In this document: positions 90 through 27,887 of the stretch, piece after piece
Layout of the letters: each line of letters starts with the position of its first letter
Position numbering within the stretch: position 1 is the first letter of the stretch
Source: an uncultured Acidimicrobiia bacterium
GTDB taxonomy: Bacteria > Actinomycetota > Acidimicrobiia > Acidimicrobiales > AC-14
Direction of reading: 5' to 3'
Assembly: GCA_963836205.1 (NCBI GenBank)
Contig: CAWIIV010000017.1
Span: 64,001 to 128,000 of the forward strand
DNA length: 64,000 nucleotides
The notes under the pieces: model-generated
What the model was told of the DNA's origin: nothing
The model's input: only the letters and a program-made list of their open reading frames with translations
Databases searched by the model: none
Program-made: the position numbers and the translations under genes

Positions 90-1202
90 TCAGACTCCGT
101 CGTCATCGCCTCCCCGGGCAGTGTAGAAGGCGCCGGTGGTGGCTCCGGGCGGAATATGGGCGCCCGGCGAGATCGACGCGAACGGTCCGACGATGCTGGA
201 CGCCCCGATCTCGGCGTCGTGGGCGACCGTGTGCTCGACCGACGCCCCTTCCCCCACCACGCAGTCGATCAGGCGGGTGTGGGGGCCGACCCGGGCGCCC
301 CGGCCCACGACGGTGCGGCCCTGGAGCACGGTGCCGGGGAGGAGGGTGACGTCGGCCGCCAGGTGGACGGCGGCGTCGACGTAGGTGCTGCGAGGGTCGA
401 CCATGGTGACCCCGGCCCGCATCCACCGCTCGTTGATGCGGTGGCGGAGGACGGCCTCGGCCTCCGCCAGCTGGGCCCGGTCGTTGACCCCGACCGCCTC
501 CGAGGGGTCGTCGGCCAGCACGGCCATGACCTTGTGGCCGGTGCCGTGGAGAACGGCCACCACGTCGGACAGGTAGTACTCGCCCTTGGTGTTGTCGGGG
601 CTGATGCGGCGCAGGGAGGGGGCGAGCAGCCCCCGGCGGAAGCAGTAGATCGACGTGGCCACCTCGTCGATGTCGCGCTCGGCCTCGGTGGCGTCGGCGT
701 CCTCGACCACCCGGGCCACCCGGCCGTCCTTGCCCCTGACCACCCGGCCCATGCCGCTGGGGTCGTCGGGGCGGGCGGTGAGGAGCGTGGCCGCGGCGTC
801 GCTCTCCCGGTGCTCGAGCACCAGATCGCCGAGGGTGGTGGGCCGCACGAGGGGCGTGTCGCCCGGGAGGACAACGATGTCGGCGTCGTCGAGATCGGGA
901 TCGTCGGGGAAGGCGGTGAGCGCCACCGCCAGGGCGTCGGCCGTGCCCCGGGTGACGCGCTGCTCGACGAAGTCGATGACGAGGTCGGGTGGGCCGTACT
1001 CCTGGAGGGTCTTGGTGACGGGCTCGGCCCCGTGGCCCACCACCACGACCGCCCGCTCGACGTAGAGCTCGGACAGGGCGTCGAGGACGTGCAGGAGCAT
1101 CGGCCGCCCGCACAACGGGTGGAGGGGCTTGGGCAGCGCCGACCGCATCCGGGTGCCGTGCCCGGCCGCCATGACCACCGCGCACAGCGGACGCACCCTC
1201 AT
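90..1202 (-). CDS. glmU: GlmU-like UDP-GlcNAc pyrophosphorylase, short form (about 370 aa)
   Basis: VMAAGHGTRMRSALPKPLH, RGTADA, GEYYLSDVV, GVNDRAQLA and a partial hexapeptide-repeat region; start re-placed at ATG 1202 because the longer ORF overlaps the tRNA. Confidence 0.9.
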   Translation of the reverse strand: MRVRPLCAVVMAAGHGTRMRSALPKPLHPLCGRPMLLHVLDALSELYVERAVVVVGHGAEPVTKTLQEYGPPDLVIDFVEQRVTRGTADALAVALTAFPDDPDLDDADIVVLPGDTPLVRPTTLGDLVLEHRESDAAATLLTARPDDPSGMGRVVRGKDGRVARVVEDADATEAERDIDEVATSIYCFRRGLLAPSLRRISPDNTKGEYYLSDVVAVLHGTGHKVMAVLADDPSEAVGVNDRAQLAEAEAVLRHRINERWMRAGVTMVDPRSTYVDAAVHLAADVTLLPGTVLQGRTVVGRGARVGPHTRLIDCVVGEGASVEHTVAHDAEIGASSIVGPFASISPGAHIPPGATTGAFYTARGGDDDGV

Positions 1203-4080: not shown

Positions 4081-5604
4081 CTACTTGCGGCGGGGGAAGA
4101 GCGGGGGACCCTTCTCCACCGGCAGGCCCCCCGGGTAGCCGCCCCAGGCGGCAGCCTCGGGGAGTCGTTGGTCGGCCGGTGATCCCGCCAGCCCCAGCCG
4201 GCGCCAGATCTCGGCACTGGCGGTGGGGATGGCGGGCGAGACGAGCACGGTGACGATGCGCAGGGCCTCGAGGGCGTCGCCCAAGACCGCGTCGACCTCG
4301 GGGCCGGGCTCCGCCTTCCAGGGCTCGGCCACCTCCAGGTGGGCGTTGGTCTCCCGGATCAGGCGCCAGACGGCCTCAAGTGCCTCCGACGGGGCCAGCC
4401 GATCCCACGCCGCGGCCACGTCGACGTACGTGGTGGCGGCGGCCGCGGCCAACGGGCCACCCCTCCGCGGCGCCGGTCCGATGCCGCCGCACTTGCTCCC
4501 GACCACGGTGGCGAGCCGGGACAGGAGGTTTCCCAGGTTGTTGGCCAGGTCGGAGTTGTAGCGGGCTGCCAACCCCTCGCCGGAGAAGTCGCCGTCGAGT
4601 CCGAACGGGGTCTCCCGGAGCAGGTGGTAGCGCACCGGGTCGACGCCGTACTCCTCCACCACCTCGCCGGGGGTGATCTGGTTGAGCCTGGTCTTGGAGA
4701 TCTTCTCCCCGCTCAGCAGCAGCCAGCCGTGAGCCGCCACCCGCCGGGGCGGGTCGAGGCCGGCCGCCATGAGCATCGCCGGCCAGTAGACGGCGTGGAA
4801 GCGGATGATGTCCTTGCCGATGAGGTGGACGTCGACCGGCCACCAGCGCTGGAACTGAGACAGATCGTCGCCGCCCCCGTCATCCAGGCCGTACCCGGCG
4901 GCGGTGATGTAGTTGGGGAGGGCGTCGAACCACACCCACGCCACGGAGTCGGGGTCCCAGGGAAGGGGCACGCCCCACCGGAAGGCGCTGCGGCTGATGG
5001 AGATGTCACGCAGCCCACCGCGGATGAACGACAGCACCTCGTTGCGCCGGCCGGCAGGGATGATCCCCTCCGGGTGGGCGTCGTACCAGTCGAGCAGGCG
5101 CTGCTGGTAGCGGGAGAGCCGGAAGAACCAGTTCTCCTCCTTCACCCGCTCCACCGGTCGGCCGTGGACAGGGCAGTTGCCGTCGACCAGGTCGTCTTCG
5201 GTGTAATAGGCCTCGCAGCTGACGCAGTAGAGACCCTCGTAGGTGTCGCGCTCGATGTCGCCGTTGTCGTAGATGACCTGGAGGAACTTCTGCACCGCCG
5301 CTGCGTGCCGGGGCTCGGTGGTGCGGATGAAGTCGTCGTAAGCGACGTTCAGCAGGTCGGCGGCCTGGCGGAAGCGGGCGCTGTTGGTGTCGGCCAGCGT
5401 CTGGGGGTCGAGGCCCTTGGCCTCGGCCGCCTGCTTGTTCTTCAGCCCGTACTCGTCGGTACCGGTGACGAAGCGCACGTCCTCGCCCAGCAACCGATGC
5501 CACCGGGTGATGGCGTCGCCGAGGACAACCTCGTAGGAGTGGCCGATGTGGGGCGCGTCGTTGACGTACATGATCGCCGTCGTGAGGTAGAAGCGCTCGG
5601 CCAC
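4081..5604 (-). CDS. metG: methionine--tRNA ligase
   Basis: YLTTAIMYVNDAPHIGH, GTDEYG, GKDIIRFH, KISKT. Confidence 0.96.
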   Translation of the reverse strand: MAERFYLTTAIMYVNDAPHIGHSYEVVLGDAITRWHRLLGEDVRFVTGTDEYGLKNKQAAEAKGLDPQTLADTNSARFRQAADLLNVAYDDFIRTTEPRHAAAVQKFLQVIYDNGDIERDTYEGLYCVSCEAYYTEDDLVDGNCPVHGRPVERVKEENWFFRLSRYQQRLLDWYDAHPEGIIPAGRRNEVLSFIRGGLRDISISRSAFRWGVPLPWDPDSVAWVWFDALPNYITAAGYGLDDGGGDDLSQFQRWWPVDVHLIGKDIIRFHAVYWPAMLMAAGLDPPRRVAAHGWLLLSGEKISKTRLNQITPGEVVEEYGVDPVRYHLLRETPFGLDGDFSGEGLAARYNSDLANNLGNLLSRLATVVGSKCGGIGPAPRRGGPLAAAAATTYVDVAAAWDRLAPSEALEAVWRLIRETNAHLEVAEPWKAEPGPEVDAVLGDALEALRIVTVLVSPAIPTASAEIWRRLGLAGSPADQRLPEAAAWGGYPGGLPVEKGPPLFPRRK

Positions 5605-6229: not shown

Positions 6230-6616
6230 TCACATGCGCTCGACGTGCACGCCGACCGCGTGGGCCGCGAGCGCGCTGATGTCCGCCATGTCGCCGGTGA
6301 ACACCGTCCCCCCGGGCTCGGCGACGGCCACCACCAGAGCGTCCACGGCTGAGCCTCCGCCCGCCTTCGTCCTCAGCGCGGCCGCTCGCCGAACGAGCGA
6401 CTCAGGCAGGTCGGTTCGCAGGTCACAGCCTTTGATCAGCCGGTTGACGGCCACGTCGGTGCCGGGCCGCCCAGTGACGGACTCGACCAGCACCACCGAG
6501 GGCACGAGGGGTGGCCAGAAACCGGCCCGTTCGAAGGCCCGGATCATCGCCACCGAGCGGGTCGTGCGCTCGGCGAGGCGCGACAGACCGCCGGAGTCGA
6601 GAACGAGTGTCGTCAT
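6230..6616 (-). CDS. PIN-domain (VapC-like) toxin
   Basis: LVLDSGGL...SAVDALVV...TGD; overlaps the upstream antitoxin by ATGA. Confidence 0.8.
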   Translation of the reverse strand: MTTLVLDSGGLSRLAERTTRSVAMIRAFERAGFWPPLVPSVVLVESVTGRPGTDVAVNRLIKGCDLRTDLPESLVRRAAALRTKAGGGSAVDALVVAVAEPGGTVFTGDMADISALAAHAVGVHVERM

Positions 6617-6890: not shown

Positions 6891-7730
6891 TCAGCTCAGG
6901 CGGAGGGCGGCCTCGTAGACCTGGCGCTTGGGGACGGCGAGCTCGGCGGTCACCTCCGCCACCGCGTCCCGCTTGGGCATCCCCGCAGCCAGGCGGACCC
7001 GCAGCGCGTCCTCCACGTCGGACTCGGTGGCGGGCTCCCGGGCGAGCGCACCCTCGATGACCAGGACGTACTCGCCCAGAGGTTCCGTCTCGGCCAGATG
7101 GACGGCGGCAGCCGCCAGCGTCCCCCGCCACACGTCCTCGAACTTCTTGGTGATCTCCCGGGCCACCGCCACCCGGCGCTCGCCGCCCACGGCCGCGGCC
7201 AGGTCGGCGACGGTGGCCAGCACCCGGCGGGGGGACTCGAACAGCACCGTCGTCCGGGGCTCTGCCGCCAGCTCGGCCACCCGGATGGCGCGGTCGCGGC
7301 CCTTCCGGGGCAGGAAGCCCTCGAAGCACCACCGGGCGGTGGGCAGGCCGCTCACCACCAGCGCCGCGATCGCAGCCGACGGGCCGGGCACCACGTCGAC
7401 CCGGTACCCGGCCTCGGCCGCCGCCGCCACCAGCCGCTCGCCGGGGTCGGAGATGCCGGGCATCCCCGCGTCGGTCACCACCGCCACCTGCTGCCCGGCG
7501 GCCAGGCGGGCCAGTACGCCGTCGACCTGGGCCGCCTCGTTGTGGTCGTGCACCGCGATCAGCCGGCCACCGGCGGGGACACCGGCCGCGGTCAGCAGCT
7601 GGCGGGTGCGCCTGGTGTCCTCACAGGCGATGACGTCGGCCGTGCGCAGCACCTCCACCGCCCGGGGCGAGAGGTCGCCGAGGTTGCCGATCGGGGTCCC
7701 CACCAGGACGAGGACGCCACCGCCGGTCAC
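6891..7730 (-). CDS. rsmI: 16S rRNA C1402 2'-O-methyltransferase RsmI
   Basis: GTPIGNLGDLSPRA, ACEDTRRT, DAGMPGISDPG, FEGFLP, REITKKFE. Confidence 0.95.
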   Translation of the reverse strand: MTGGGVLVLVGTPIGNLGDLSPRAVEVLRTADVIACEDTRRTRQLLTAAGVPAGGRLIAVHDHNEAAQVDGVLARLAAGQQVAVVTDAGMPGISDPGERLVAAAAEAGYRVDVVPGPSAAIAALVVSGLPTARWCFEGFLPRKGRDRAIRVAELAAEPRTTVLFESPRRVLATVADLAAAVGGERRVAVAREITKKFEDVWRGTLAAAAVHLAETEPLGEYVLVIEGALAREPATESDVEDALRVRLAAGMPKRDAVAEVTAELAVPKRQVYEAALRLS

Positions 7731-8116
7731 TCCTCGACCTCACGCACCTCCAACTGGTCGCCCGGCCGCAGCCGCCAGCGGTCGAACGATCCCGTTTCGG
7801 CCTCGATCACACAACCCGACCGCAGCGACGGCAGGCTGACCCGCCCCGGCTGGAGGCATATCGTCCGCCTGACGATAAGTTCTCGATCACAAAAGGCCAC
7901 GTCAAGGGTGAACTGCATCCCGAACGAGTGCACCGATCGGGCCGGGCGCAGCAGGATCGCCCCCGCGATCCCGGGTCGGCCGAGCAGGCCTCGCGACCGC
8001 TCGGCGAAGGTCGAGGCCACCTCCAGGGCGGCCAGTACTTCCCCATCGCGCAGCAACCAGCCGGTGGTGGCCACGGGCGTCAGGGGCGCGGGCCGCCGGC
8101 GGCGATGGCGGCGCAA
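7727..8116 (-). CDS. DUF192 family protein
   Basis: EVASTFAERSRGLLGR...SVHSFGMQFTLDVAF...VIEA; start uncertain. Confidence 0.8.
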   Translation of the reverse strand: MRRHRRRRPAPLTPVATTGWLLRDGEVLAALEVASTFAERSRGLLGRPGIAGAILLRPARSVHSFGMQFTLDVAFCDRELIVRRTICLQPGRVSLPSLRSGCVIEAETGSFDRWRLRPGDQLEVREVEE

Positions 8117-17892: not shown

Positions 17893-18070
17893 TCTCGTCC
17901 ATGCGGTTGGCCGAGCGTTCGAGCTCGACTGCCCGCTGACGGAGGGTGTTGGCCACGAGCGGTGGCCGCCGGGAGGCATGGAGCCGGAGCTGGGACGCCA
18001 TCTGACGGAGCTTGACCGTGCGCAGCGCCCGCCAGTTGTCCGGGCGCGTCGAACCGGGGTCGTCAAACAT
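17873..18070 (-). CDS. small hypothetical protein
   Basis: 65-aa helical ORF with AAGG upstream; no family recognised. Confidence 0.4.
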   Translation of the reverse strand: MFDDPGSTRPDNWRALRTVKLRQMASQLRLHASRRPPLVANTLRQRAVELERSANRMDEIISRPA

Positions 18071-18108
18071 GGGCGGGCCTTACCCCGTGGGGTCGGTCGC
18101 CAAACCGC

Positions 18109-18306
18109 TCAGCGCCAGTCCTCCTCCTCGTAGGGGGGCGCAGGCTGGTGCTGCTCGATGGCGTCGGGCTCGGGGACCTCGGGGTCGTCGGGCAGGATCT
18201 CGACGGGCAACTCGTCGTCCACGGGGTCGCCGAGGGGCAGGGACTGCTCGAAGGCGTCCGCCGGCGGAGCCTCCGGGTCCGGGACCTGAGTCATCCGATC
18301 GCTCAT
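18109..18306 (-). CDS. small acidic protein with two (E/P)xDAxEQ motifs
   Basis: PPADAFEQ...PEPDAIEQ; GAGGGAGG RBS. Confidence 0.65.
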   Translation of the reverse strand: MSDRMTQVPDPEAPPADAFEQSLPLGDPVDDELPVEILPDDPEVPEPDAIEQHQPAPPYEEEDWR

Positions 18307-18405
18307 CGTGTTCCTCCCTCGTTTGCCCCCAACCGCACGGGGTACGTCCCCGGTGGCCCGGGACCCTAACCCCCGCGGCCCTTCACGAGAACCCACCGAT
18401 GCGCC

Positions 18406-18666
18406 ATGTCCGAGCCCCGAGAACCTGAGCACTACGCCGGCGAGCGGCTCCGCGACGCGCTGGCTGCCGACCCCCGGGTCTCGGAGCTCGGCCTCCAGGT
18501 GCACATCGTGGCCGAGCACGTGTTCGTCACCGGGCAGGTGTCGACGCCCGAGCGGGTCGAGGCGGTGTCGGAGATCGCGGGCCACGTGCTGCCCGACCTT
18601 GTCCTGCACAACGAGCTGACCGTGATCGAGCTGGCCGACGTGCCGGCGGTGGAGAACCTCCCGTGA
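18406..18666 (+). CDS. BON-domain protein
   Basis: LRDALAADPRVSELGLQV...VFVTGQV...HNELTV. Confidence 0.75.
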   Translation: MSEPREPEHYAGERLRDALAADPRVSELGLQVHIVAEHVFVTGQVSTPERVEAVSEIAGHVLPDLVLHNELTVIELADVPAVENLP

Positions 18667-19442
18667 TCCGGGTGGCCGCGGTCGGCGACGTCCATTTCGG
18701 CACCGACTCGGCCGGCACCTTGCGTCCCCACCTGGCCGACCTTGCCGAGCGGGCCGATGTCTTCCTGCTTGCCGGCGACCTCACCCGGCGGGGGCTGGCC
18801 GAGGAGGCCCAGGTGCTGGCCGACGAGCTGGGCGACGTGCGGGTTCCGATGTTCGCCGTGCTCGGCAACCACGACTACCACTCGCTGCAGGAGCACGCGG
18901 TGGCCAAGGTCATGGAGGGGGCGGGTGTCCGGGTGCTGGAAGGCGAGGGGGTCGTCGTCGACGTCGGCGGCTGCCGGTTGGGAATCGCCGGGAGCAAGGG
19001 CTTCGGCGGTGGGTTCGCGGGTGCGTGCGGGTCGGAGTTCGGGGAGCCGATGATGAAGTCGTTCATCGCCTACACCCGGCACCTGGCCGACGGGCTGGAG
19101 GCGGCCCTGGCCGGGCTGGCCGGCGACGCCGATCTGCGGGTCGCCCTCCTCCACTACGCCCCCACCGACCGCACCCTCAAGGGCGAACGGCCCGAGATCT
19201 ACCCGTTCCTGGGGAGCTACCTGCTGGGCGAGGCCGTCGACCGGGCCGGTGCCGACCTCGTGCTCCACGGCCACGCCCATACGGGCACCGAGCGGGGCTG
19301 GACCGACGGCGGCATCGAGGTCCGCAACGTGGCCCAGCCCTTGATCGGCCGGGCGTACAACGTGTACTGCCTCGGATGGCCACGGGCGGACAGTGACGCC
19401 CGGGGCGACGAGCTGGTCGAGGCCGGCGGCGGCCCCTGGTAG
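18663..19442 (+). CDS. metallophosphoesterase
   Basis: GDVH, AGDLT, GNHD, LHY, HGHAH. Confidence 0.92.
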   Translation: MIRVAAVGDVHFGTDSAGTLRPHLADLAERADVFLLAGDLTRRGLAEEAQVLADELGDVRVPMFAVLGNHDYHSLQEHAVAKVMEGAGVRVLEGEGVVVDVGGCRLGIAGSKGFGGGFAGACGSEFGEPMMKSFIAYTRHLADGLEAALAGLAGDADLRVALLHYAPTDRTLKGERPEIYPFLGSYLLGEAVDRAGADLVLHGHAHTGTERGWTDGGIEVRNVAQPLIGRAYNVYCLGWPRADSDARGDELVEAGGGPW

Positions 19443-19443
19443 G

Positions 19444-19491
19444 TCAGGCGCCGAGGCCGATGGGGCAGCTCACGCCGGTGCCGCCCAGGCC
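19444..19491 (-). pseudogene. msrA: displaced 3' end of msrA (GLGGTGVSCPIGLGA*)
   Basis: Joining at the CAGGCC repeat to the msrA body at 27285+ gives ...[21 protein letters not shown], a canonical MsrA C-terminus. Confidence 0.92.
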
Positions 19492-19536
19492 TTTCGTGCG
19501 CTCACTTCGGCGTCTCAGGAATCCGCCTGGCTCACT

Positions 19537-19950
19537 TCACTTCCAGAGCCCCCGCCCCCAACCTTCCCGGCGTGCGTCCGCGCGCCAGAGACGGAAGTCG
19601 TGAACCTCAGCGATCACCATCACCACCCCCGCGGCGGCGACGAGGACTCCGATGGCACGCACGCCGGCGCTTCCGTTGGCTCCGCCGGTGATGGCAAAGA
19701 GAAGGCCCCCGAGGACGACGAGCACGGTGAAAAGGAAGTAGGTGACGTGCCCGTACCAGAAGTCAGGTCCCGGCCTCCGGGACGTCAGCTTGGACGCTGT
19801 CAACCAGAGCGAGAAGAACGCCACGACCGCGCCCGAAAGCTGAGGGATGGGGGGGCGGTTGCCGCGGAGCGCTGTCGCCACCATCAGGAGGACCACGACG
19901 GCGGCAGCCAACGTCAACCGCCGGATGGCAGATCGGGGTTCCGTGGGCAT
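19537..19950 (-). CDS. small multi-TM membrane protein (element cargo)
   Basis: Four hydrophobic stretches from MPTEPRSAIRR. Confidence 0.6.
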   Translation of the reverse strand: MPTEPRSAIRRLTLAAAVVVLLMVATALRGNRPPIPQLSGAVVAFFSLWLTASKLTSRRPGPDFWYGHVTYFLFTVLVVLGGLLFAITGGANGSAGVRAIGVLVAAAGVVMVIAEVHDFRLWRADARREGWGRGLWK

Positions 19951-20009
19951 CGCGTGATCGGGGCGCTGAAGGATATTTCGGGACCGATCTCGGCGGTCCG
20001 GCTGCGGTG

Positions 20010-20333
20010 TCATCGCCAAGGGCCACCAAGCGTCGTCCCGGTCTCGGGGTCTGTGACGCGATGCACCTCGCTCACCGGGAACCAAGGTTCACGTCTGCCG
20101 TCATCGAGTGCGACAGAGTGTGTCGCCAAGAGGCCAGCGTCGGAAACGATGAGGGTGCCCGTTCGGTCCACCGGAAACCGAAAGCCAGACAGAATCGTCA
20201 CCCTTTGACCATGGAGGGAGCTCAGGACCCTCCAACGGTCACGCTCGTCGAACTTCCACCGTCGCCCAGCGACGGCGGCCCAGACGAGGAGAGGCACCAA
20301 CACCGCCAAGAGGATCCAGCCGCGCACACCCAA
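20010..20333 (-). CDS. hypothetical protein with N-terminal TM (element cargo)
   Basis: 107-aa ORF beginning WILLAVLVPLLVWAAVAG. Confidence 0.55.
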   Translation of the reverse strand: MGVRGWILLAVLVPLLVWAAVAGRRWKFDERDRWRVLSSLHGQRVTILSGFRFPVDRTGTLIVSDAGLLATHSVALDDGRREPWFPVSEVHRVTDPETGTTLGGPWR

Positions 20334-20390
20334 GTTCTACGCTCGGAACCGTTCTCCGAAGGGTTGACCGGGGGCAACCGACGGCATGGC

Positions 20391-20748
20391 TCAGTCGTTA
20401 TCGACGAACAGCAGCAACCGGTCGCCCTTGGACATGAACTCGATAGCCGACAGCGGCAATGACCGCTTGGTCTCCCAGGTCCAACTGGGGTCGAACGCCC
20501 TGCTCTCCAGCTCGCCCCAGCATGCCCTTCGCGTCTCTGGAGCGATCCACTCGAGATCTCGACTCGCCTGCGCTATGGCCACCGCCACGGTGGGATCGCC
20601 GAAATAGCGCCTCAGTGCGCTCGCGATCTAGATCCTCGGCGCGGGGTTCCCAAAGACGGCCGTCGCGATCCCACAGTTTCCAGCCGGCGTTGCGCGCCGA
20701 CGCCCACTGTGGATTGAGAAGCCGGTTGACGTTGCCTTTCTGGCCCAT
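20391..20748 (-). pseudogene. hypothetical cargo gene with probable frameshift near 20603
   Basis: MGQKGN...ERTEALF joins GDPTVAVAIAQ...LLLFVDND if one T of TTT is removed. Confidence 0.4.
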
Positions 20749-20860
20749 GGTCGTCCGAGTCTCGCGCTGGGACGTTTGCGACAGGTGTCCTCCTTCGGCG
20801 GCCAGCAGCCGGGCGAGTGAGGTCAGACGCGCAGGGAGCATCCGCGTCACGGAGATTTCC

Positions 20861-22242
20861 GTGTCTTACGATCCTGTCTCGTGATCTGGGCGGCGGGGGT
20901 TGATCGTGCGGCAGTGCGGGCCTCGGGCACATGGCTGGACGACCGCTTCGGGCCCGGCACCACGCAGGCTGTCCTCGAGGGCCTGGACCGCCGGGCGGTG
21001 GCCGATGACCACCCGGTGGTTTTCGACGAGGGCCAGCCACTGGAGGCGTTGAACGTCTTCCTGCGGGACTCGCCCTACGCGCCCTCGACGGCAACGCAGT
21101 ACGCCGGCGACCTGACGATGCTCGCCCGGTTCCTGGACGCAGGCAGAGGGGTCGGGCTGTTGGAGTGCACCTCGGACGATCTGACCGATTTCCGGCGGGC
21201 CAGGACGGCCGCGGTCAGCAACGTGCGTTGGGAGCGGCAAGCGGCGGTGATCAAGACCTTCTACCGCCGCCAGATGGCGGTGGGCACCATGGCGACATCG
21301 CCGGTGATCCGCTGGCCGGATGCCGACGGCCGGGACGCCCTAGCCGTGCCGATCAACCGACACCGCCTCGTCGCCTACCTCAGTGCCGCCGAGTACCAGC
21401 AGTTCAGACGCCACGGGCTGGCGGCGGCCGGCCAGCGGCCGGGCGCCCGCGACTGCCTCTATGCCGACCTGCTGGTGGAAACGGGGTGCCGGCGGGCGGA
21501 AATCAACCGCCTGTCGTGGCTCGACGTCCCCGACCGACTCCCGGCCGGGAACCCGTTCCTGATCTGGGTGGTCGGCAAGGGCGCCAAGCAACGGCAGGTG
21601 TACATGACCGGGGCGACCCTGCGCCGGCTCATCAATTACCGGTTCGGGGTCCGGGCTGAAGTCGTCGAGGCTCGCCAGGGCCTGCTGGAGCGCCGGGTGG
21701 CCAGCGGCGAGCTGGTGATGTGCGAGGCCGCCTCGCCTGACGGGAGGGGTCGGGCGCGGTTGGCGATCGGGAGTGGCCGGCCCCGGCCCACGGTCGACAT
21801 CGATGAGATCACCCTGCGCCGACTGGTGCTGCGGACCCCGGACGGGACGGTCGACCCGGTGGCGCTGTTCGTCTCCGAGCGGGAGGCTCTGATGCCCCGC
21901 AAGGAGCATTGGAACAAGTCGTTCGCCCAGGCCAACGAGCGTTGCGCGGTCGGCACCAGGAGGCCCGTTGCCGATGCGGGTTCATCCCCATCTCCTTCGA
22001 CACACCTTCGCCGTGCACGCCCTGAGCACCTACATCCGCCGGATCGCCTCCATCCCACAGACGTCGACGGAACGGATCTGGAGGACCCCCGCCTGTTCGT
22101 GCAGCGTCTACTCGGGCACACCAGTCCCACGACCACCGCCCGCTACCTCGAAGCGGCGGTGCGGGAGCGGGGCGAGGTCCTGCCGGCGCTGGCCGAGATG
22201 AGCGAGGCCCTGCTCGGTGATTCCGTGGGCGACGGCCCCTGA
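20861..22242 (+). CDS. tyrosine recombinase A (frameshifted)
   Basis: ETGCRRAEI, GKGAKQR and LLGHTSPTTTARYL are in the main frame; HPHLLRHTFA is in another frame (about 21950-22075); GGAG-GTG at 20861 is out of frame with 20881. Confidence 0.85.
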
Positions 22243-24148
22243 TGCCGAAGCGCTTCGCTCACTCGGAAATCGAGAAGTCACCCGACGATGAGGCAGCCCC
22301 GTCGGTCACCCCGATCGGGCTCATCAAGGTGCATGCGGAGAAGCCGGGTGGTCAGGTGGCTGCCACCACCCTCGACGTGAACCGCTACCGGTGCCGGCGC
22401 CTGGCCCGCGAGCTGGGCGAGGAATGGCAGCGCTGGGCGGGCCTCACCGCCACCCGCTACGGCGGGGTCCGCGATCACTACGAGGCGATCAACGACCTCC
22501 TGCTCTTCTGCGACCGCAGTGCCCCCGAGCCCGACGTCATGGACAGCGCCGGCCTGAGCGTTGATGTGCTCGATCGTTGGGAGGATGACATGGCGGGCCG
22601 CTATTCGGCTCGGTCGGACATCCCCGGCAAGCGCGCCAGTCAGCTGTTCCGATACCTACGAGCCATCGAGGAGCGGACCCCGGGCCGCCTCGATCCCGCC
22701 GTGGTGAAGCGCCTGACACAACCTCCGACCAGGCCGAACAGCGCTTCCTATCGTCCGGTGGCCGACTTCACCAAGGGCGAGCTGGACCGTCTCATCGTCA
22801 CCGCCCGGCGCACCGTCCGCTCCACCGAGCGTCGGATCGCCGAGGGTCGTCGCCTCGTCGCCGAGGGCGGTGATCCCAGGCTGACCGGACCCTGGACGTG
22901 GCCCAACCTGGTGTGGCTGGCGGCCCGGCAGGGGCTGACAGTGGAGCTGATCCGAGCGCACATGCCTCGGTGGTGGGCGCAGTGGGATGAGTCCGTTCGG
23001 GCCGTCTCCTCGGCGGACGAGGGCGGCCGCGGCAAGCTCGGAGCCGTCGTCGCGCTCGCCTACCGCCACGTCTTTCCACATCCCATCGACCTCATGGGGC
23101 ACTTCGTGCTTCTCGCCCTCGACACCGGAGCTGCCCCCGAATCGATCAAGGACCTGACCGTCGACGACGTCGATGGTCGCTGCAGACCGTGTCGTCGAGG
23201 TTCGCCTGACCAACCTCCGGGCCCACCAGGAGACGACCCGGCGCTTCGCCGATCCCGGCCCTGACACTCCCGAGCGGGACCGGCTGAAGGACACGGGGAC
23301 GGTGCTGCGATCCCTCCTCGACGTGACCTCTGCCACCCGATCGGCGTCTGGCCTGGGCCAGCTGTTCGTCGGCGGCATCGTCCATGTCCGCTGGGAGGGC
23401 GTCCGGCTCGGCCTGATCAATTGGAACAACTTCCCGTTGAAGCAGTGGATCGTGGACAACGACCTTGATCGCCCCGCCACCAGCACCAGGCACAAGGGCT
23501 CCGGTGAGCTCACCCTCGAGCTGCCGGCGCTGTCCAAGCCCTGGGACCTGCGCCGGCTTCGCAAGTCGACCCTCGCTCACCAGGCGCTCCACCATCCCAA
23601 CGAGATGGCGATGTGGCGCGACAACACCCTGGCCGTGTTCCAGGACCACTACGTCGTGGGTTCGACGGTGCTGATGACCCATCTCGGCCAGCTCGTCACC
23701 CGAGCGGCGGATTCGCTGGCGGAGGGCGTGCGACGGTCGGCGGGCTACACCGTCATCCACCTGTCGGCCCAGCCGGCGCTGCACGCAGGGTCGGAGGAGG
23801 TCGCCGCAGTGCTCAGGGTCGGTGTCCACGACCTCGGTCGCCTCGCCGAGGGCCAGCTCGACGTCGACGGCGGGATCGCCGCCTGCAAGAACGCACACGC
23901 CTCGCCCTTCGCCGGACCCGGCGAGTTGTGCCGGGCGGCGAAGATGGGCCTGTGCCTCACCTGCCCCAACGCCGTCTTCACCGTCGAGCATCGAGCCGGG
24001 CTTCGCCGCTTTGACGAGGAGGTCATCGAGAATCACCGGCGCCACCTCGCTCCGCCGGCCTTCGCCCAGCGGTGGCTGCCGATTCGGCTCCTGGCGCGCG
24101 ACGTCCTCGCCCAGCTCGACGACGTCCGCGCCGGTGCCGTCGAGGTGA
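22242..24148 (+). CDS. divergent recombinase-like protein B with Cys-rich C-terminus (frameshift near 23170)
   Basis: LALDTGAAPESIKDL, DLRRLRKS, QDHY, then CKNAHASPF...LC...CLTCPNA; end inferred at the GTGA at 24145-24148. Confidence 0.6.
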
Positions 24149-26233
24149 CGAGCCTCGCAGCGCACGCCGAGGCTCCACGGCCGTCGCGGTGGGCGGCCGA
24201 CACCCCCATCTACCCCGGTGGCCAGGCGCAGTTCGGTGAGCTGATCTGGGATCTCAACGATCAGCGCCACAACGTCAACCGAGACGCGTCCCATTTCGTC
24301 TGCCGGTTCGACAAGCTTCCCGAGAGCTGGCAGCTGCTCGCCCGCGAGATATGCATGTGCCAGGTGGACGTTCGCACGGTCCGCTGCGAGCTGGGCATCC
24401 TCCGTCGCCAGCCGGCGGCCCCGAGAACGATGTGCGAGCTGACTATCCGCATCCGGACAATGGCCCAATGGTCGACGGCATCCGGGCTGGGCCCGCCGTC
24501 GACCTGGGACCAGGGCGACTGCGACGGCTACGTCCGCCACGTCGCCGGTCGGCAGGGCCATCAGAGGAGCATCCAGCAGGCCGCCGAGCTGGTCCGATTG
24601 CTGTGGTCGCTGGGGCCGCTCCTCACTGACGGGGGCCTTGGTTTCGAGCCCTGGCCAGGCGTGGCCACCCCCGACGTCATCAAGCTCCTCGGCTTCAGCC
24701 CAGCCACCTTGGCGCCCGGCTGCGCCACGCCGGTGCTTCCTCTCGAGGCGTTCGTGCCGGTCATGACCGCCGCCTTCGCGTACTCAGAAGTCTTCGCCGA
24801 CGACATCCTCGCCGCCTGGCAGATGCGAGAGCTCGGTGACCCCAACCTCGGCGCCAAGGGGCCACGGGCGTTGGATCTCATCCGTTCATGGGCGGCCGAG
24901 CCCGATAGTCGGGTGCCTCTCCTGGGCGAAGCTGCGGCTCAAGAGGCGACCCGGCGCCCAGGCTGCTCGAACATCGGTCCTGGGGACCCCAACTGGTCAA
25001 TGGTCGCCCGCCTGACCGGCGTCCAGGTGAAGGCGTTCATGCCCAGCTACGCGTTAGCACCCCAAACCCGGGCCGTGGTCCAGGGGATGGTCGATGACGG
25101 CCGGATCATCGCCGGCGGCTTCTACGCCCCTACTGCCCGGATCGAATGCGCCGCCGGGTCGTTCCGACCCTGGCGGCCCGCCTACTCGACCTTCAAAGAG
25201 GTCCGAGTCGATCTGGCGGATGCTGCGCTCCGCCGCCGCCATCGTGCTCCTCGCCCTCACCGGCATGCGAGATTCGGAGTGCCAGGATCTCCAGCGCGAC
25301 GCGATCCACGAGCACTACGGGTCACAGGCGCTGCGGACGCATCGCTTCAAGCAACGGTTCGGTGCCGAGCCGGTGTCATGGTGGGTGTCGGACGAGGCCC
25401 TCAACGCCTACCGGGTGCTCGAGCAGCTCTCCGAGCACCCCACCCATGTCATCGCCTCGCTCTCGACGCTGGAGGGCACCCTGCGCGCCGGGGCTCGGAT
25501 GCGATTCGGACCATTCGTCCAACAGGTCAACGCCAACCGGATCCACACGGGTTTGCCCGAGATCCCGGCTATGGAGCAGTTCTCGCCCCAGGTGCTACGG
25601 GAGACCTTCGCCTACTACCTCGGTCGCTCCCATGAGCTCGGCGACATCATCACCGGCTACCAATTCGGCCATGCCAAGGCGACCGTCACCGCCGCCTACC
25701 AGCGTTACCGGCCGGAGGACTCCTGGAACGAGGCCTTCCGGCGGGGCAAGCTCGACGGGGAGGTCGCCCTGCTCAACAGCCTGGCCGACTTCACCGGCGA
25801 ACCCGGCTCGGTCGTCGGCCGCCACGGTGACGAGCTCCGTTCGGACGCCTTGGAGCTGAGGGCCACAATCCTCACAGACCCCGCCGCTGCCCGGCGCATC
25901 GCCGCCCACCACGCCGAGACCTGGCACCACGGTGACACCCTCAGCTGCCGGTTCGATCGGTCGACTGCGGTGTGCCACAAGATGGCTGCAGCGGCCGGCA
26001 TCAACGACCCTGCCGACGGCCCGCTGCACGATCTGTGCATAGGCAGCGGCTGCGTCAACGTCCACTTCACCAGCCGCAACCTCACCGCTCTTGAACGTCA
26101 GCGGACTGACATCGCCGCTCGCCTGGCCGCGGCGACGGGCGGCTCAGTCGCCCAGATTCAAGCCCAAGAGGAACTCACCCGGGTCAACGAGATCATCGCC
26201 CAGCTCCAGCCCGGGACCAGCAAGGAGGACTGA
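24145..26233 (+). CDS. large tyrosine recombinase C (frameshift near 25215)
   Basis: LTGMRDSE, PQVLRETFA, QFGH...TAAY, Cys-rich tail (SC..AVC..LC..GCVN). Confidence 0.75.
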
Positions 26234-26661
26234 TGGCGAGACCGAAAACGGGAATCGATCCCACCACCGAGCGGTCGATCCAGGAGGCCATCGCCCGTCT
26301 GGCCGCCGACCCGGCACTGCCCCGCACCAGAGCCCACCTCGCCACCCTCGCCGGTGTCGGCCGGGCAACGATCTACCGAGGCTTCGAGCACCGCCCCCAC
26401 CTGCGGGAAGCGTTCGCACGGCTCGTCGGCGAGGAACCTGCCCCGACGAAGGACACCGCCGACGAAAGCCTCGTGCGGGAGCTGCGCAAGGACAATCGAG
26501 AGCTCCGCAGGCTCCTCGATGCAACCGCCACCACCATCGAGCACCTCTTGCGCGAGAATGCTGCCCTCCGGGCGCGGCAACAGGTGGCATTTGCTGATCG
26601 ATCGACGCCAGAGGACCTGTCGAATGCCTCGGTCTGCACCAAAGGCGCTGGGATGCGGTAA
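26233..26661 (+). CDS. TnpC-like small HTH/coiled-coil protein
   Basis: LATLAGVGRATIY HTH then a coiled coil; TGATG coupling and AAGGAGG RBS; position mirrors Tn554 tnpC. Confidence 0.7.
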   Translation: MARPKTGIDPTTERSIQEAIARLAADPALPRTRAHLATLAGVGRATIYRGFEHRPHLREAFARLVGEEPAPTKDTADESLVRELRKDNRELRRLLDATATTIEHLLRENAALRARQQVAFADRSTPEDLSNASVCTKGAGMR

Positions 26662-26671
26662 CAGTTGAGCG

Positions 26672-27220
26672 GTGGACTGGTGGAGAAAGCTTGATGATCT
26701 CGACCGGCGCTTCGGGGCCCGAGCGGCCCACACGACTGACTGGGAGGAGCGTCGGGTCGTTGCCCGGCGATTCCCGCTGCGGCTGACCGCTCTATCGGTG
26801 TCGCTCGTTGTCGTGCCAGCGATGGCCATCCTTCTCTTCCAAACAGTGCGGAACCAGCTAGAGGACAACCGCGTCCGGGCAGCGCTCGATCGGGACGGCG
26901 GGCTGGCGGTCGGCACCGCCACCGACTTCAAGGGTCCTAACCGCTGGAACGTCTTCCCTGACGTGATGCGCGTCGAGTTCACGACGGACACGGGACAGGC
27001 GGTCAGGGCGTCGGTGCCAGTGAGCCACCTCCCTGAGCAGAAAGGTGCGCGCGTCGAGGTCCGCTATGTGCGCACCACCCCTTCGGTCGCTCGAGTGCCA
27101 GGCGACGAGACGCCTCATCGCGGCCGGTGGATCCTCATCGCTGTCGCAGGACCCGTGTTTTCGGTCCTGTTCGTCGCGTTCATGGCGTTGACGGGCGGGC
27201 GCTCCCAAGGCCTCGCCTGA
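26672..27220 (+). CDS. membrane protein with two TMs around a beta-rich domain (DUF3592-like; element cargo)
   Basis: TM, VEFTTDTG...VEVRY..., TM. Confidence 0.6.
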   Translation: MDWWRKLDDLDRRFGARAAHTTDWEERRVVARRFPLRLTALSVSLVVVPAMAILLFQTVRNQLEDNRVRAALDRDGGLAVGTATDFKGPNRWNVFPDVMRVEFTTDTGQAVRASVPVSHLPEQKGARVEVRYVRTTPSVARVPGDETPHRGRWILIAVAGPVFSVLFVAFMALTGGRSQGLA

Positions 27221-27236
27221 GGGGCCATGACGGGCG

Positions 27237-27887
27237 CTAATCCGAGAGAGTAAATGGTTCTTGATCCGGCACCAGGCTACGAAACAGGCCGCAGTAGCCG
27301 TTGGGGTTGGCGGCCAGGTACTGCTGGTGGTAGTCCTCGCCGTAGTAGAAGGCGGGCGCTTCCCGGATCTCGGTGGTGATCTCGCCGAGGCCGGCCGCGG
27401 TCAGGCGCTCCTGGAACATGTCGCGGGACTCGTGAGCCGCCTTGAGCTGGTCCTCCGAAGTGGCGTAGATGGCGGACCGGTACTGGGTGCCGACGTCGTT
27501 GCCCTGGCGCATCCCCTGGGTGGGATCATGGGACTCCCAGAAGACCTTGAGCATGTCGGCGTAGGTGGTACGGGCGGGGTCGAAGACGACCAGGACCGCC
27601 TCGGTGTGCCCGGTGCGGCCGGAGCACACCTCCTGGTACGTGGGGTTGGGCGTGAAGCCGCCGGCGTAGCCCACGGCGGTCGTGTACACGCCGTCCGCCT
27701 GCCAGAACTTGCGCTCGGCGCCCCAGAAGCACCCCATGCCGAAGATGGCCGTCTGGAACCCGTCCGGAAACGGTGGCCGGAGGGGGGCGTCCTTCACCAG
27801 ATGGCGGGCGGGCACCGGCATCTCGGTGGTGCGGCCGGGCAAGGCCTCGGCCTCGGGGGTCATCCGCGTCTTCTGCCTCGAGAACAT
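27237..27887 (-). CDS. msrA: peptide-methionine (S)-S-oxide reductase with element-derived C-terminus
   Basis: [31 protein letters not shown]...GYCGL, then foreign [15 protein letters not shown]. Confidence 0.95.

Follow-up and report, generated by a model that had tools for sequence, protein, structure and literature searches.

In a 64,000-nucleotide stretch of DNA from an uncultured Acidimicrobiia bacterium (contig CAWIIV010000017.1 of assembly GCA_963836205.1; the whole stretch is hereafter called the window) the gene msrA is split by an inserted element of 7793 bp. We consider it quite probable that this insert is a decayed copy of a site-specific four-gene tyrosine-recombinase transposon of the Tn554/SE type (SE, strand-biased circularizing integrative element), and that it arrived as an ordinary insertion at a look-alike of the family's target word. 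The msrA gene lies on the minus strand. Its native part runs from 27887 to 27285 with ...NPNGYCGL as the last residues and continues with 15 foreign codons, which are the right end of the element (27284-27240), up to a stop at 27237-27239; across this joint the minus strand reads ...AACGGCTACTGCGGCCTG directly followed by TTTCGTAGCC.... The native 3' end, encoding GGTGVSCPIGLGA and a stop, was found at 19485-19444 on the same strand, 7.8 kb downstream of the break, and here the minus strand reads ...GCGCACGAAA, then GGCCTG, then GGCGGCACCGGCGTGAGCTGCCCCATCGGCCTCGGCGCCTGA. On the plus strand CAGGCC is present at both junctions (19486-19491 and 27285-27290), and comparison with an empty site limits the insert proper to 19492-27284, which places the element within the last 14 codons of msrA. 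The split gene comprises the following features:

19444..19485, minus strand: orphaned native msrA 3' end GGTGVSCPIGLGA and stop, with the third cysteine; same as the intact-gene tail in L005
19486..19491, no strand assigned: CAGGCC at the intA-proximal junction (attL side), from the sequence
19492..27284, plus strand: inserted element, 7793 bp, from the empty-site comparison and composition
27237..27887, minus strand: chimeric msrA open reading frame (ORF); Pfam PMSR profile positions 1-152 of 153, E 5e-61; NCBIfam TIGR00401 msrA, E 4.8e-64
27285..27290, no strand assigned: CAGGCC at the intA-distal junction (attR side), GGCCTG on the msrA strand and there the Gly-Leu codons; from the empty site of G005

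Searching with the MsrA core, we found msrA in 37 of 40 related genomes. Seven genomes of the same genus were searched; six contained msrA and the gene was uninterrupted in all six. In genome G005 the empty site is TACTGCGGCCTGGGCGGCACC, with a 42-nt tail that matches the orphan tail of the window letter for letter. Because relatives carry the uninterrupted gene, the break in msrA is an insertion, confirmed as genuine and beyond chance. The original prediction, made from the letters of the window alone, had a mobile element splitting msrA after NPNGYCGL, and the sequence together with the six same-genus genomes bears this out; the intact native tail 7.8 kb away and the CAGGCC at both junctions, which it had also described, stand with small coordinate corrections. 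It was likewise right that the 3' end of the target is displaced without a replacement copy in the element; rebuilding of the gene end was rejected because the 15-residue foreign tail is unlike GGTGVSCPIGLGA. The insert has a G+C content of 0.63-0.71. In the adjoining upstream flank (18000-19499) it is 0.71-0.74, and over the whole genome, a draft of 25 contigs that is 88.6% complete, 0.714. Contigs of two soil-metagenome runs, X2 and X3, connect 19482/19485 with 27282/27285 and skip exactly 7799 bases; their matched sides are short (24-27 nt), and the simplest reading is that they come from related organisms whose msrA is uninterrupted.

The insert encodes four translationally coupled genes on one strand with overlapping stops and starts, namely an integrase (g1), a protein without known family (g2), a long integrase (g3) and a helix-turn-helix (HTH) protein (g4). 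These genes and the two ends are:

19492..19519, plus strand: left terminal sequence TTTCGTGCGCTCACTTCGGCGTCTCAGG, family pattern of a TTT(C/T) tip with GTCTC(A/G) ~18-20 nt inside
20881..22242, plus strand: g1, ordinary tyrosine recombinase (IntA/TnpA-like), 453 codons; Pfam Phage_integrase and Phage_int_SAM_1
22242..24150 (end approximate), plus strand: g2, ~640-aa protein of no known family in the SE Tfp position; homologues of 607-648 aa
24150 (start approximate)..26233, plus strand: g3, long tyrosine recombinase (IntB/TnpB-like; 688 aa in L034); from homologues
26233..26661, plus strand: g4, intact 142-aa HTH and coiled-coil protein in the Srap/TnpC position; from domain prediction and the L034 orthologue
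27279..27284, plus strand: right terminal ACGAAA (inverted repeat of TTTCGT at the left tip), without the subterminal GTGTCTCA

Homologous loci were recovered from a scan of one genome per species (three loci, L034-L036) and from metagenome contigs (ten loci, L037-L046). Every locus that was long enough (L034, L037 and L040) contained the same four genes, intact and in the same order, and the remaining loci showed them in part. From g1 to g4 the products measure 447/639/688/142 aa in L034 and 446/641/~681/134 aa in L037 and L040, where stops and starts overlap as well. The proteins of the window element are 39-55% identical to those of relatives with known targets. Invariant residues across the family are R204, K233, H366, R369, H409 and Y418 in g1, and R372, K399, R482, H506 and Y515 in g3. 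The intact g3 of L034 has a Phage_integrase domain at residues 345-517 behind a long N-terminal extension (E 4.5e-5, below the Pfam cut-off); intact g3 gave no match in NCBIfam, and a search of PDB sequences with the g3 profile gave none either. The ends of the relatives read TTTCCTCGTGCGG versus TTTCATTGTGTAG, with GTGTCTCA on both ends in addition, whereas the window has TTTCGT at both tips and no right subterminal repeat. A search for long terminal repeats found none.

For g2 there were 13 database homologues of 607-648 aa, none with a Pfam domain. Intact g2 showed no integrase domain and no match in Pfam or NCBIfam, and comparison with g1 and g3 by hhalign gave nothing significant. Foldseek with the g2 model returned zero matches at E <= 0.001; its top row was an N-terminal integrase domain (3nrw; probability 0.98 but a non-significant E of 0.89), with weak rows for Cre below it, and these model-based rows may be a hint of integrase likeness. 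In the ESM Atlas g2 falls into large unnamed clusters, mostly of Actinomycetota, which serve as leads only. The L034 orthologue of g4 matched Pfam DUF6262 with E 2.2e-5 and 25 bits, under the 29-bit cut-off, and two of ten g4 members hit this family at E <= 0.01; a search for DUF6262 in the window's own genome gave no match. The TnpC of the Tn554-family transposon Tn6188 is labelled a DUF6262 protein (PMC11947258), so that the likeness of g4 to TnpC runs through this domain at a score under the Pfam cut-off.

Beyond these loci, a tblastn search of plasmids with the L034 long integrase gave 135 records, all below 60% identity and mostly from Streptomyces, Agrobacterium, Sphingobium and Rhodococcus. 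Eight of the nine distant plasmid relatives that we inspected had the four-gene layout; the ninth, from Phaeobacter, was without an annotated small fourth gene. The ~640-aa gene stands between the recombinase genes in all loci and in all nine inspected plasmid relatives. On a plasmid of Streptomyces sp. NBC_00853 (L053, 4090-8304) a g2-like and a g3-like part are annotated as a single coding sequence of 1404 aa, possibly an accessory protein and a long integrase that are naturally fused.

At the visible junctions, read on the element plus strand, (G/C)CC-NNNNCC is directly followed by the element's TTT(C/T), and at the other end the element's A(C/T)(G/A)AAA is directly followed by NNNNCC-GCA. 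On the coding strand of the target this corresponds to the word TGC-GGNNNN-GG(C/G). The flanks of L037 and L044 translate into LEPGCGS and GSGNFIGFAP on the two sides of the element, those of L040 into DPMCGS and GIGTTLVEAIHLG, and a flank of L036 reads GTGNFIGLAP. A DNA methylase of PF01555 (N6_N4_Mtase) is interrupted at profile position 191/192 in L038, L040 and L043, and in L045 (GNGEYL...) Methyltransf_25/11 is cut at profile position 6-7. From these sequences, the closer relatives sit mostly in a Cys-Gly-x-Gly stretch of methyltransferase genes, which we take to be the S-adenosylmethionine (SAM)-binding loop. The msrA site, TAC TGC GGC CTG GGC GGC ACC, contains the same word as the methyltransferase sites, and the redox tail of msrA (Tyr-Cys-Gly-Leu-Gly-Gly) would thus be a DNA-level mimic of the methyltransferase target word. 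None of the 13 homologous loci showed an msrA match. The original prediction had proposed checking whether homologous elements also target msrA; the relatives that could be examined were found in methyltransferase, recombinase and other genes instead, an outcome that it had itself named among those refuting it.

Two more distant members, L034 and L035, with TTTTGT ends, were found at sites other than methyltransferase genes. The first (379-891, minus strand) lies in a tyrosine-recombinase gene (Phage_integrase, E 5.7e-21), just before the codons for VTGMRPGE, and the second (7700-7948, minus strand) in a broken ORF, PMGLRLSEAKTKVCHIDEGFDFLG, which by eye resembles a group II intron reverse transcriptase. 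L045 is flanked by two different genes, on the left (2-139) by that of a class I SAM methyltransferase and on the right (6329-6442) by that of a PF01555-type DNA methylase; either two copies have recombined or the metagenome contig is chimeric. A truncated restriction-modification gene adjoins two of the nine distant plasmid relatives. One four-gene relative, on a Mycolicibacterium plasmid (L047, 505-2589), is beside an N-terminally shortened type ISP gene with the flank GTGTFIVRLIQ, and the other, on a Microbacterium plasmid (L051, 887-2554), beside an N-terminally shortened MmeI-like restriction-modification gene. These two elements may knock out restriction-modification defence genes. A methyltransferase target as a rule for the whole superfamily was rejected, since seven of the nine plasmid relatives are not beside such a gene.

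The 6-mers at the junctions bear on how the family moves. For SEs and Tn554 the rule is that the 6 bp of the target are kept at the integrase-proximal border and that the 6 bp from the proximal border of the donor are laid at the distal border (PMC10214605). In L040 the two 6-mers differ: the one beside g1 is GATGCC, the distal one GCTGCC. L044 shares 99.3% identity with the overlapping part of L037 and occupies the same methyltransferase site, but its distal 6-mer is GATGCC (4235-4246) compared to GCTGCC in L037 (8604-8615). The native 6-mer is GATGCC at sites of the L038/L040 kind and GCTGCC at sites of the L037 kind. A target 6-mer at attL with a donor 6-mer at attR was thus seen in L040 and in L044 versus L037. 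The differing distal 6-mers of L037 and L044 fit independent insertions or carry-over of a donor 6-mer, and taken together, the 6-mer differences indicate that intact relatives have recently moved between these kinds of site. L037 and the window each show matching 6-mers at their two junctions, and the window is uninformative for the carry-over rule because its 6-mers do not differ. Both the target rule and the carry-over are drawn from a handful of junctions.

Under the SE/Tn554 rule, the identical 6-mers of the window, both equal to the native msrA 6-mer, would suggest a donor at an identical 6-mer (PMC10214605). This is one of the observations that would suit a sub-lineage specific for the msrA tail, with a shortened MsrA that is neutral or useful and an insertion that was fixed and domesticated. 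The low protein identity of 39-55% to relatives with known targets, which leaves room for a different specificity, and the intact state of the msrA ORF itself point the same way. We regard such a sub-lineage as quite unlikely, however. The site was empty in each of the six genomes of the genus that had msrA, and a search of 400 other genomes of the order with the C-terminal half of g3 gave no match at E <= 1e-20 and no further copy in msrA. The msrA word, moreover, is covered by the family consensus TGC-GGNNNN-GGC, and a special specificity need not be assumed.

Compared to intact homologues (tblastn), g2 and g3 of the window are each split into two reading frames. In g1 the part from ~21950 to 22076 is out of frame, so that the ORF no longer includes the H-x-x-R box; translated in the other frame, this part gives HPHLLRHTFAVHAL. 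Four soil-metagenome runs (X1-X4) gave contigs 90-99% like the window copy that cover the core genes; only related copies were present in these runs, with a share of the stretch's words of 0.07-0.10 and no run found above 0.10. Relative to these contigs, g1 differs at 21950, where X2, X3 and X4 have one base fewer at all covering depth, and at 22076/22077, where X2 and X3 have one base more. In g2 the window is 2 nt short at 23172, where X2 and X4 contain an extra TC, and in g3 it has 1 nt extra at 25215-25219, where X2, X3 and X4 have one base fewer at all covering depth. A fifth difference, at 24123, removes the stop between g2 and g3; the g2 of the window has no stop before g3. None of the indel sites lies within a homopolymer. 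The four well-supported frame-breaking indels fall within ~3.3 kb of the element, whereas differences in flanking positions were only short and compensated, each in one related contig (19339/19344, and 20927/20929 at the g1 start). The left end of the window copy fits the family pattern (TTTC, then GTCTCA ~18 nt later), while at its right end only the terminal ACGAAA is kept; the inverted GTGTCTCA, found 15-18 nt inside in relatives, is missing. No second copy of the element able to act in trans was found in the window's own genome (88.6% complete). From these sequences we infer that the copy is most likely stuck, because the frames of the recombination genes and part of the right end have been lost.

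An element that is intact and mobile, with the indels as assembly errors and msrA as one landing site without regulatory meaning, would be in line with the draft state of the genome (25 contigs), with the 6-mer carry-over as a sign of recent movement of intact relatives between site types, and with the presence of copies 90-99% alike in four soil-metagenome runs. We consider this unlikely, since it would have to account for four well-supported indels outside homopolymers in ~3.3 kb plus a variable fifth at 24123, for flanks with only short compensated differences, and for the missing right subterminal repeat, which is not an indel artefact.

Several points weigh against our interpretation of a decayed transposon at a look-alike word. 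The minimal target word occurs 720 times in the window's own genome, and because of this number further target specificity must exist. Among relatives recovered together with flanks, none is closer than ~50% in protein identity; the sub-lineage might therefore be specific for msrA, and the identical 6-mers of the window would fit if the element had lived at an identical site before. Errors in the metagenome-assembled genome could account for the indels. At 23172 there is covering depth in X1 and X3 without a listed TC insertion, and the difference at 24123 was found in a minority of the depth only. The latter may be a variant, given the natural g2-g3 fusion on the Streptomyces plasmid, and with such a fusion in existence the missing stop need not be a defect. 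The fold model of g2 is of low confidence (pLDDT 59.8, pTM 0.34), though its N-terminal helical domain is confident. Finally, the likeness to SEs is one of layout.

By analogy with SEs and Tn554, the family would recombine across a 6-bp spacer between TGC and GG(C/G) on the coding strand of its target. The usual word of the closer relatives is the Cys-Gly-x-Gly of the methyltransferase SAM-binding motif, and the tail of msrA offers the same word at the DNA level. In relatives the proximal junction keeps the 6-mer of the target and the distal junction can bring a 6-mer from the previous site. With the loss of recombination frames and part of the right end, the window copy would have become stuck, and msrA would have been left for good in a two-cysteine form that ends in 15 foreign residues.

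The chimeric MsrA keeps the cysteines of GCFWG and GYC, and the Pfam PMSR domain is complete in its ORF, while the third cysteine (GVSC) is found only in the orphan tail. A search of the window's own genome for msrA found only this one. The ending GYCG-x-GGTG-x-x-C was present in 26 of the 29 msrA loci of relatives that were read, or in 23 of 26 without three loci from unpublished genomes (L013/G023, L016/G017 and L019/G015); one relative (L030) has an msrA naturally without the third cysteine. In the three-cysteine MsrA of Corynebacterium diphtheriae (Cys52, Cys206 and Cys215) the Cys206-Cys215 disulfide is reduced by thioredoxin, and a mycothiol route ends on Cys206, which is recycled by mycoredoxin (Mrx1) (PMC6178380). 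The native gene of the window has the same layout, with the third cysteine nine residues after the GYC cysteine, and the chimeric ORF differs from it by the loss of that cysteine. By comparison with this enzyme, the shortened MsrA probably still reduces its substrate, thioredoxin-linked recycling would be impaired or rerouted, and the mycothiol/Mrx1 route could remain. Of the predicted near full-length MsrA with altered recycling, the retained GCFWG and GYC and the lost third cysteine were thus observed, and the altered recycling follows by inference.

The original prediction had gone further and proposed an active element whose reversible precise excision toggles MsrA between its two- and three-cysteine forms and thereby tunes oxidative repair. 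The identical CAGGCC at both junctions would allow a conservative attL x attR exchange to restore msrA exactly, so that on paper precise excision does repair the gene, and the two forms should differ, as the third cysteine is kept in most relatives' loci and contributes to the thioredoxin-reduced disulfide in C. diphtheriae MsrA (PMC6178380). For SEs, however, recombination of attL with attR is published to yield circles and no empty site (PMC10214605). Frame-breaking indels affect all three large genes when compared to related copies, the right end is incomplete, the genome showed no second copy, and relatives insert elsewhere. Among the contigs of X1-X4 none was seen that bridges msrA into the element and none with a circle junction, and the short-sided 7799-base skips fit the msrA of other organisms. 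A reversible switch is therefore very unlikely in our view and the idea found no support; its direct physiological interest is for this reason small.

Of the systems described before, SEs are closest in layout. Their order intA-tfp-intB-srap with overlapping genes is matched here by position, size and domain content only, with g2 in the place of Tfp as a large protein without recognisable catalytic motif and g4 in the place of the small Srap. Published SEs have imperfect terminal repeats of 13-19 bp, a 6-bp spacer and target specificity (PMC10214605); the 6-bp spacer, specificity for a target word, small size and few cargo genes are features in common with the present element. Short imperfect terminal inverted repeats are seen in its relatives, whereas the window copy shows only TTTCGT at both tips. 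As in the relatives found here, the proximal junction of SEs keeps the target 6-mer and the distal one may carry a donor 6-mer. The present element differs in its actinomycetotal host and, for the window copy, in being broken. In RefSeq complete genomes, a PSI-BLAST survey detected tfp-srap blocks in no group other than Gammaproteobacteria (PMC10214605), which speaks against SE membership by sequence.

Van Houdt et al. (2012) described Tn554-related transposons of actinobacteria with one typical and one abnormally long recombinase (611-828 aa) and a TnpC-like gene (PMC3414803). The present family likewise has a typical and a long tyrosine recombinase (g1 of 447-453 aa, g3 of 688 aa) with an N-terminal extension, a small gene that may be TnpC-like, hosts among actinobacterial plasmids and chromosomes, and site-specific insertion with a carried-over 6-mer instead of a true duplication. 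In those transposons, however, the recombinase genes are adjacent, whereas here a 640-aa gene lies between them, a partner that Tn554 does not have. By this extra gene the family differs from the transposons of 2012, and its novelty is modest. GInts (ginABCD) also have four recombination genes, including a recombinase-like one without catalytic residues, and by insertion at gene 3' ends alter the C-terminus of the product (PMC5385486). Their order is catalytic ginA and ginB followed by non-catalytic ginC and then ginD, unlike the non-catalytic protein in second place here, and we rejected a GInt identity on this ground. GInts are also much larger, with a median of 34.9 kb (PMC10214605), and their hosts are Proteobacteria, Verrucomicrobia, Bacteroidetes and Firmicutes, the main text containing no Actino- word (PMC5385486). 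An RIT (recombinase in trio) identity was rejected as well, since 447/639/688 aa stand against three recombinases of 315-410 aa that all have the catalytic tyrosine, no integrase domain was found in g2, and a search for long terminal repeats, which in RITs measure 34 bp, found none. Our literature search, with subscription journals and papers' supplements outside its scope, found neither a published four-gene element of this kind from Actinomycetota nor an account of a methyltransferase-motif target.

In addition to the four genes, the insert contains the following ORFs:

19537..20333, minus strand: two hydrophobic cargo ORFs (107 and 182 aa) without family, located between left end and g1
26672..27220, plus strand: cargo ORF of 182 aa, predicted membrane protein, no family; from the ORF list and Pfam

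Between the left end and g1 the window has a cargo segment of 1.39 kb, compared to ~70 nt in relatives. A paralogue of the 182-aa ORF at 26672..27220 was found elsewhere in the window's own genome, beside a sortase-like gene (G000 C22, L002 1293-1823), with 82% nucleotide identity, and seems to lose its frame after ~150 codons. All relatives conserve, ahead of the g1 start, a further stretch with GTCTC, which in the window lies just 5' of g1 at 20836-20880 (TTTCCGTGTCTTACGATCCTGTCTCGTG); it may serve as a second binding site for a recombinase or as the leader of the operon.

More tentatively, and with more doubt than confidence, we propose an undescribed actinobacterial clade of SE-like four-gene transposons that would use the motif word TGC-GGNNNN-GGC, in methyltransferases including restriction-modification enzymes and in its msrA mimic, as a portable landing pad. 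The identical 6-mers at both junctions would then mean that the window's sub-lineage had been at an identical site before and had spread from msrA to msrA, and an intact copy would, by analogy with SEs, send out circles without giving msrA back.

For the organism, these results mean that one bacterium has probably fixed a two-cysteine MsrA. For the family, they extend the SE-type layout of four genes, which the published survey confined to Gammaproteobacteria, to Actinomycetota and, at a greater distance, to plasmids of Alphaproteobacteria, and the relatives provide natural examples of the 6-mer carry-over rule. Homing to the codons of a conserved protein motif, if true, would explain how such elements find sites in many hosts and genes, including restriction-modification genes.

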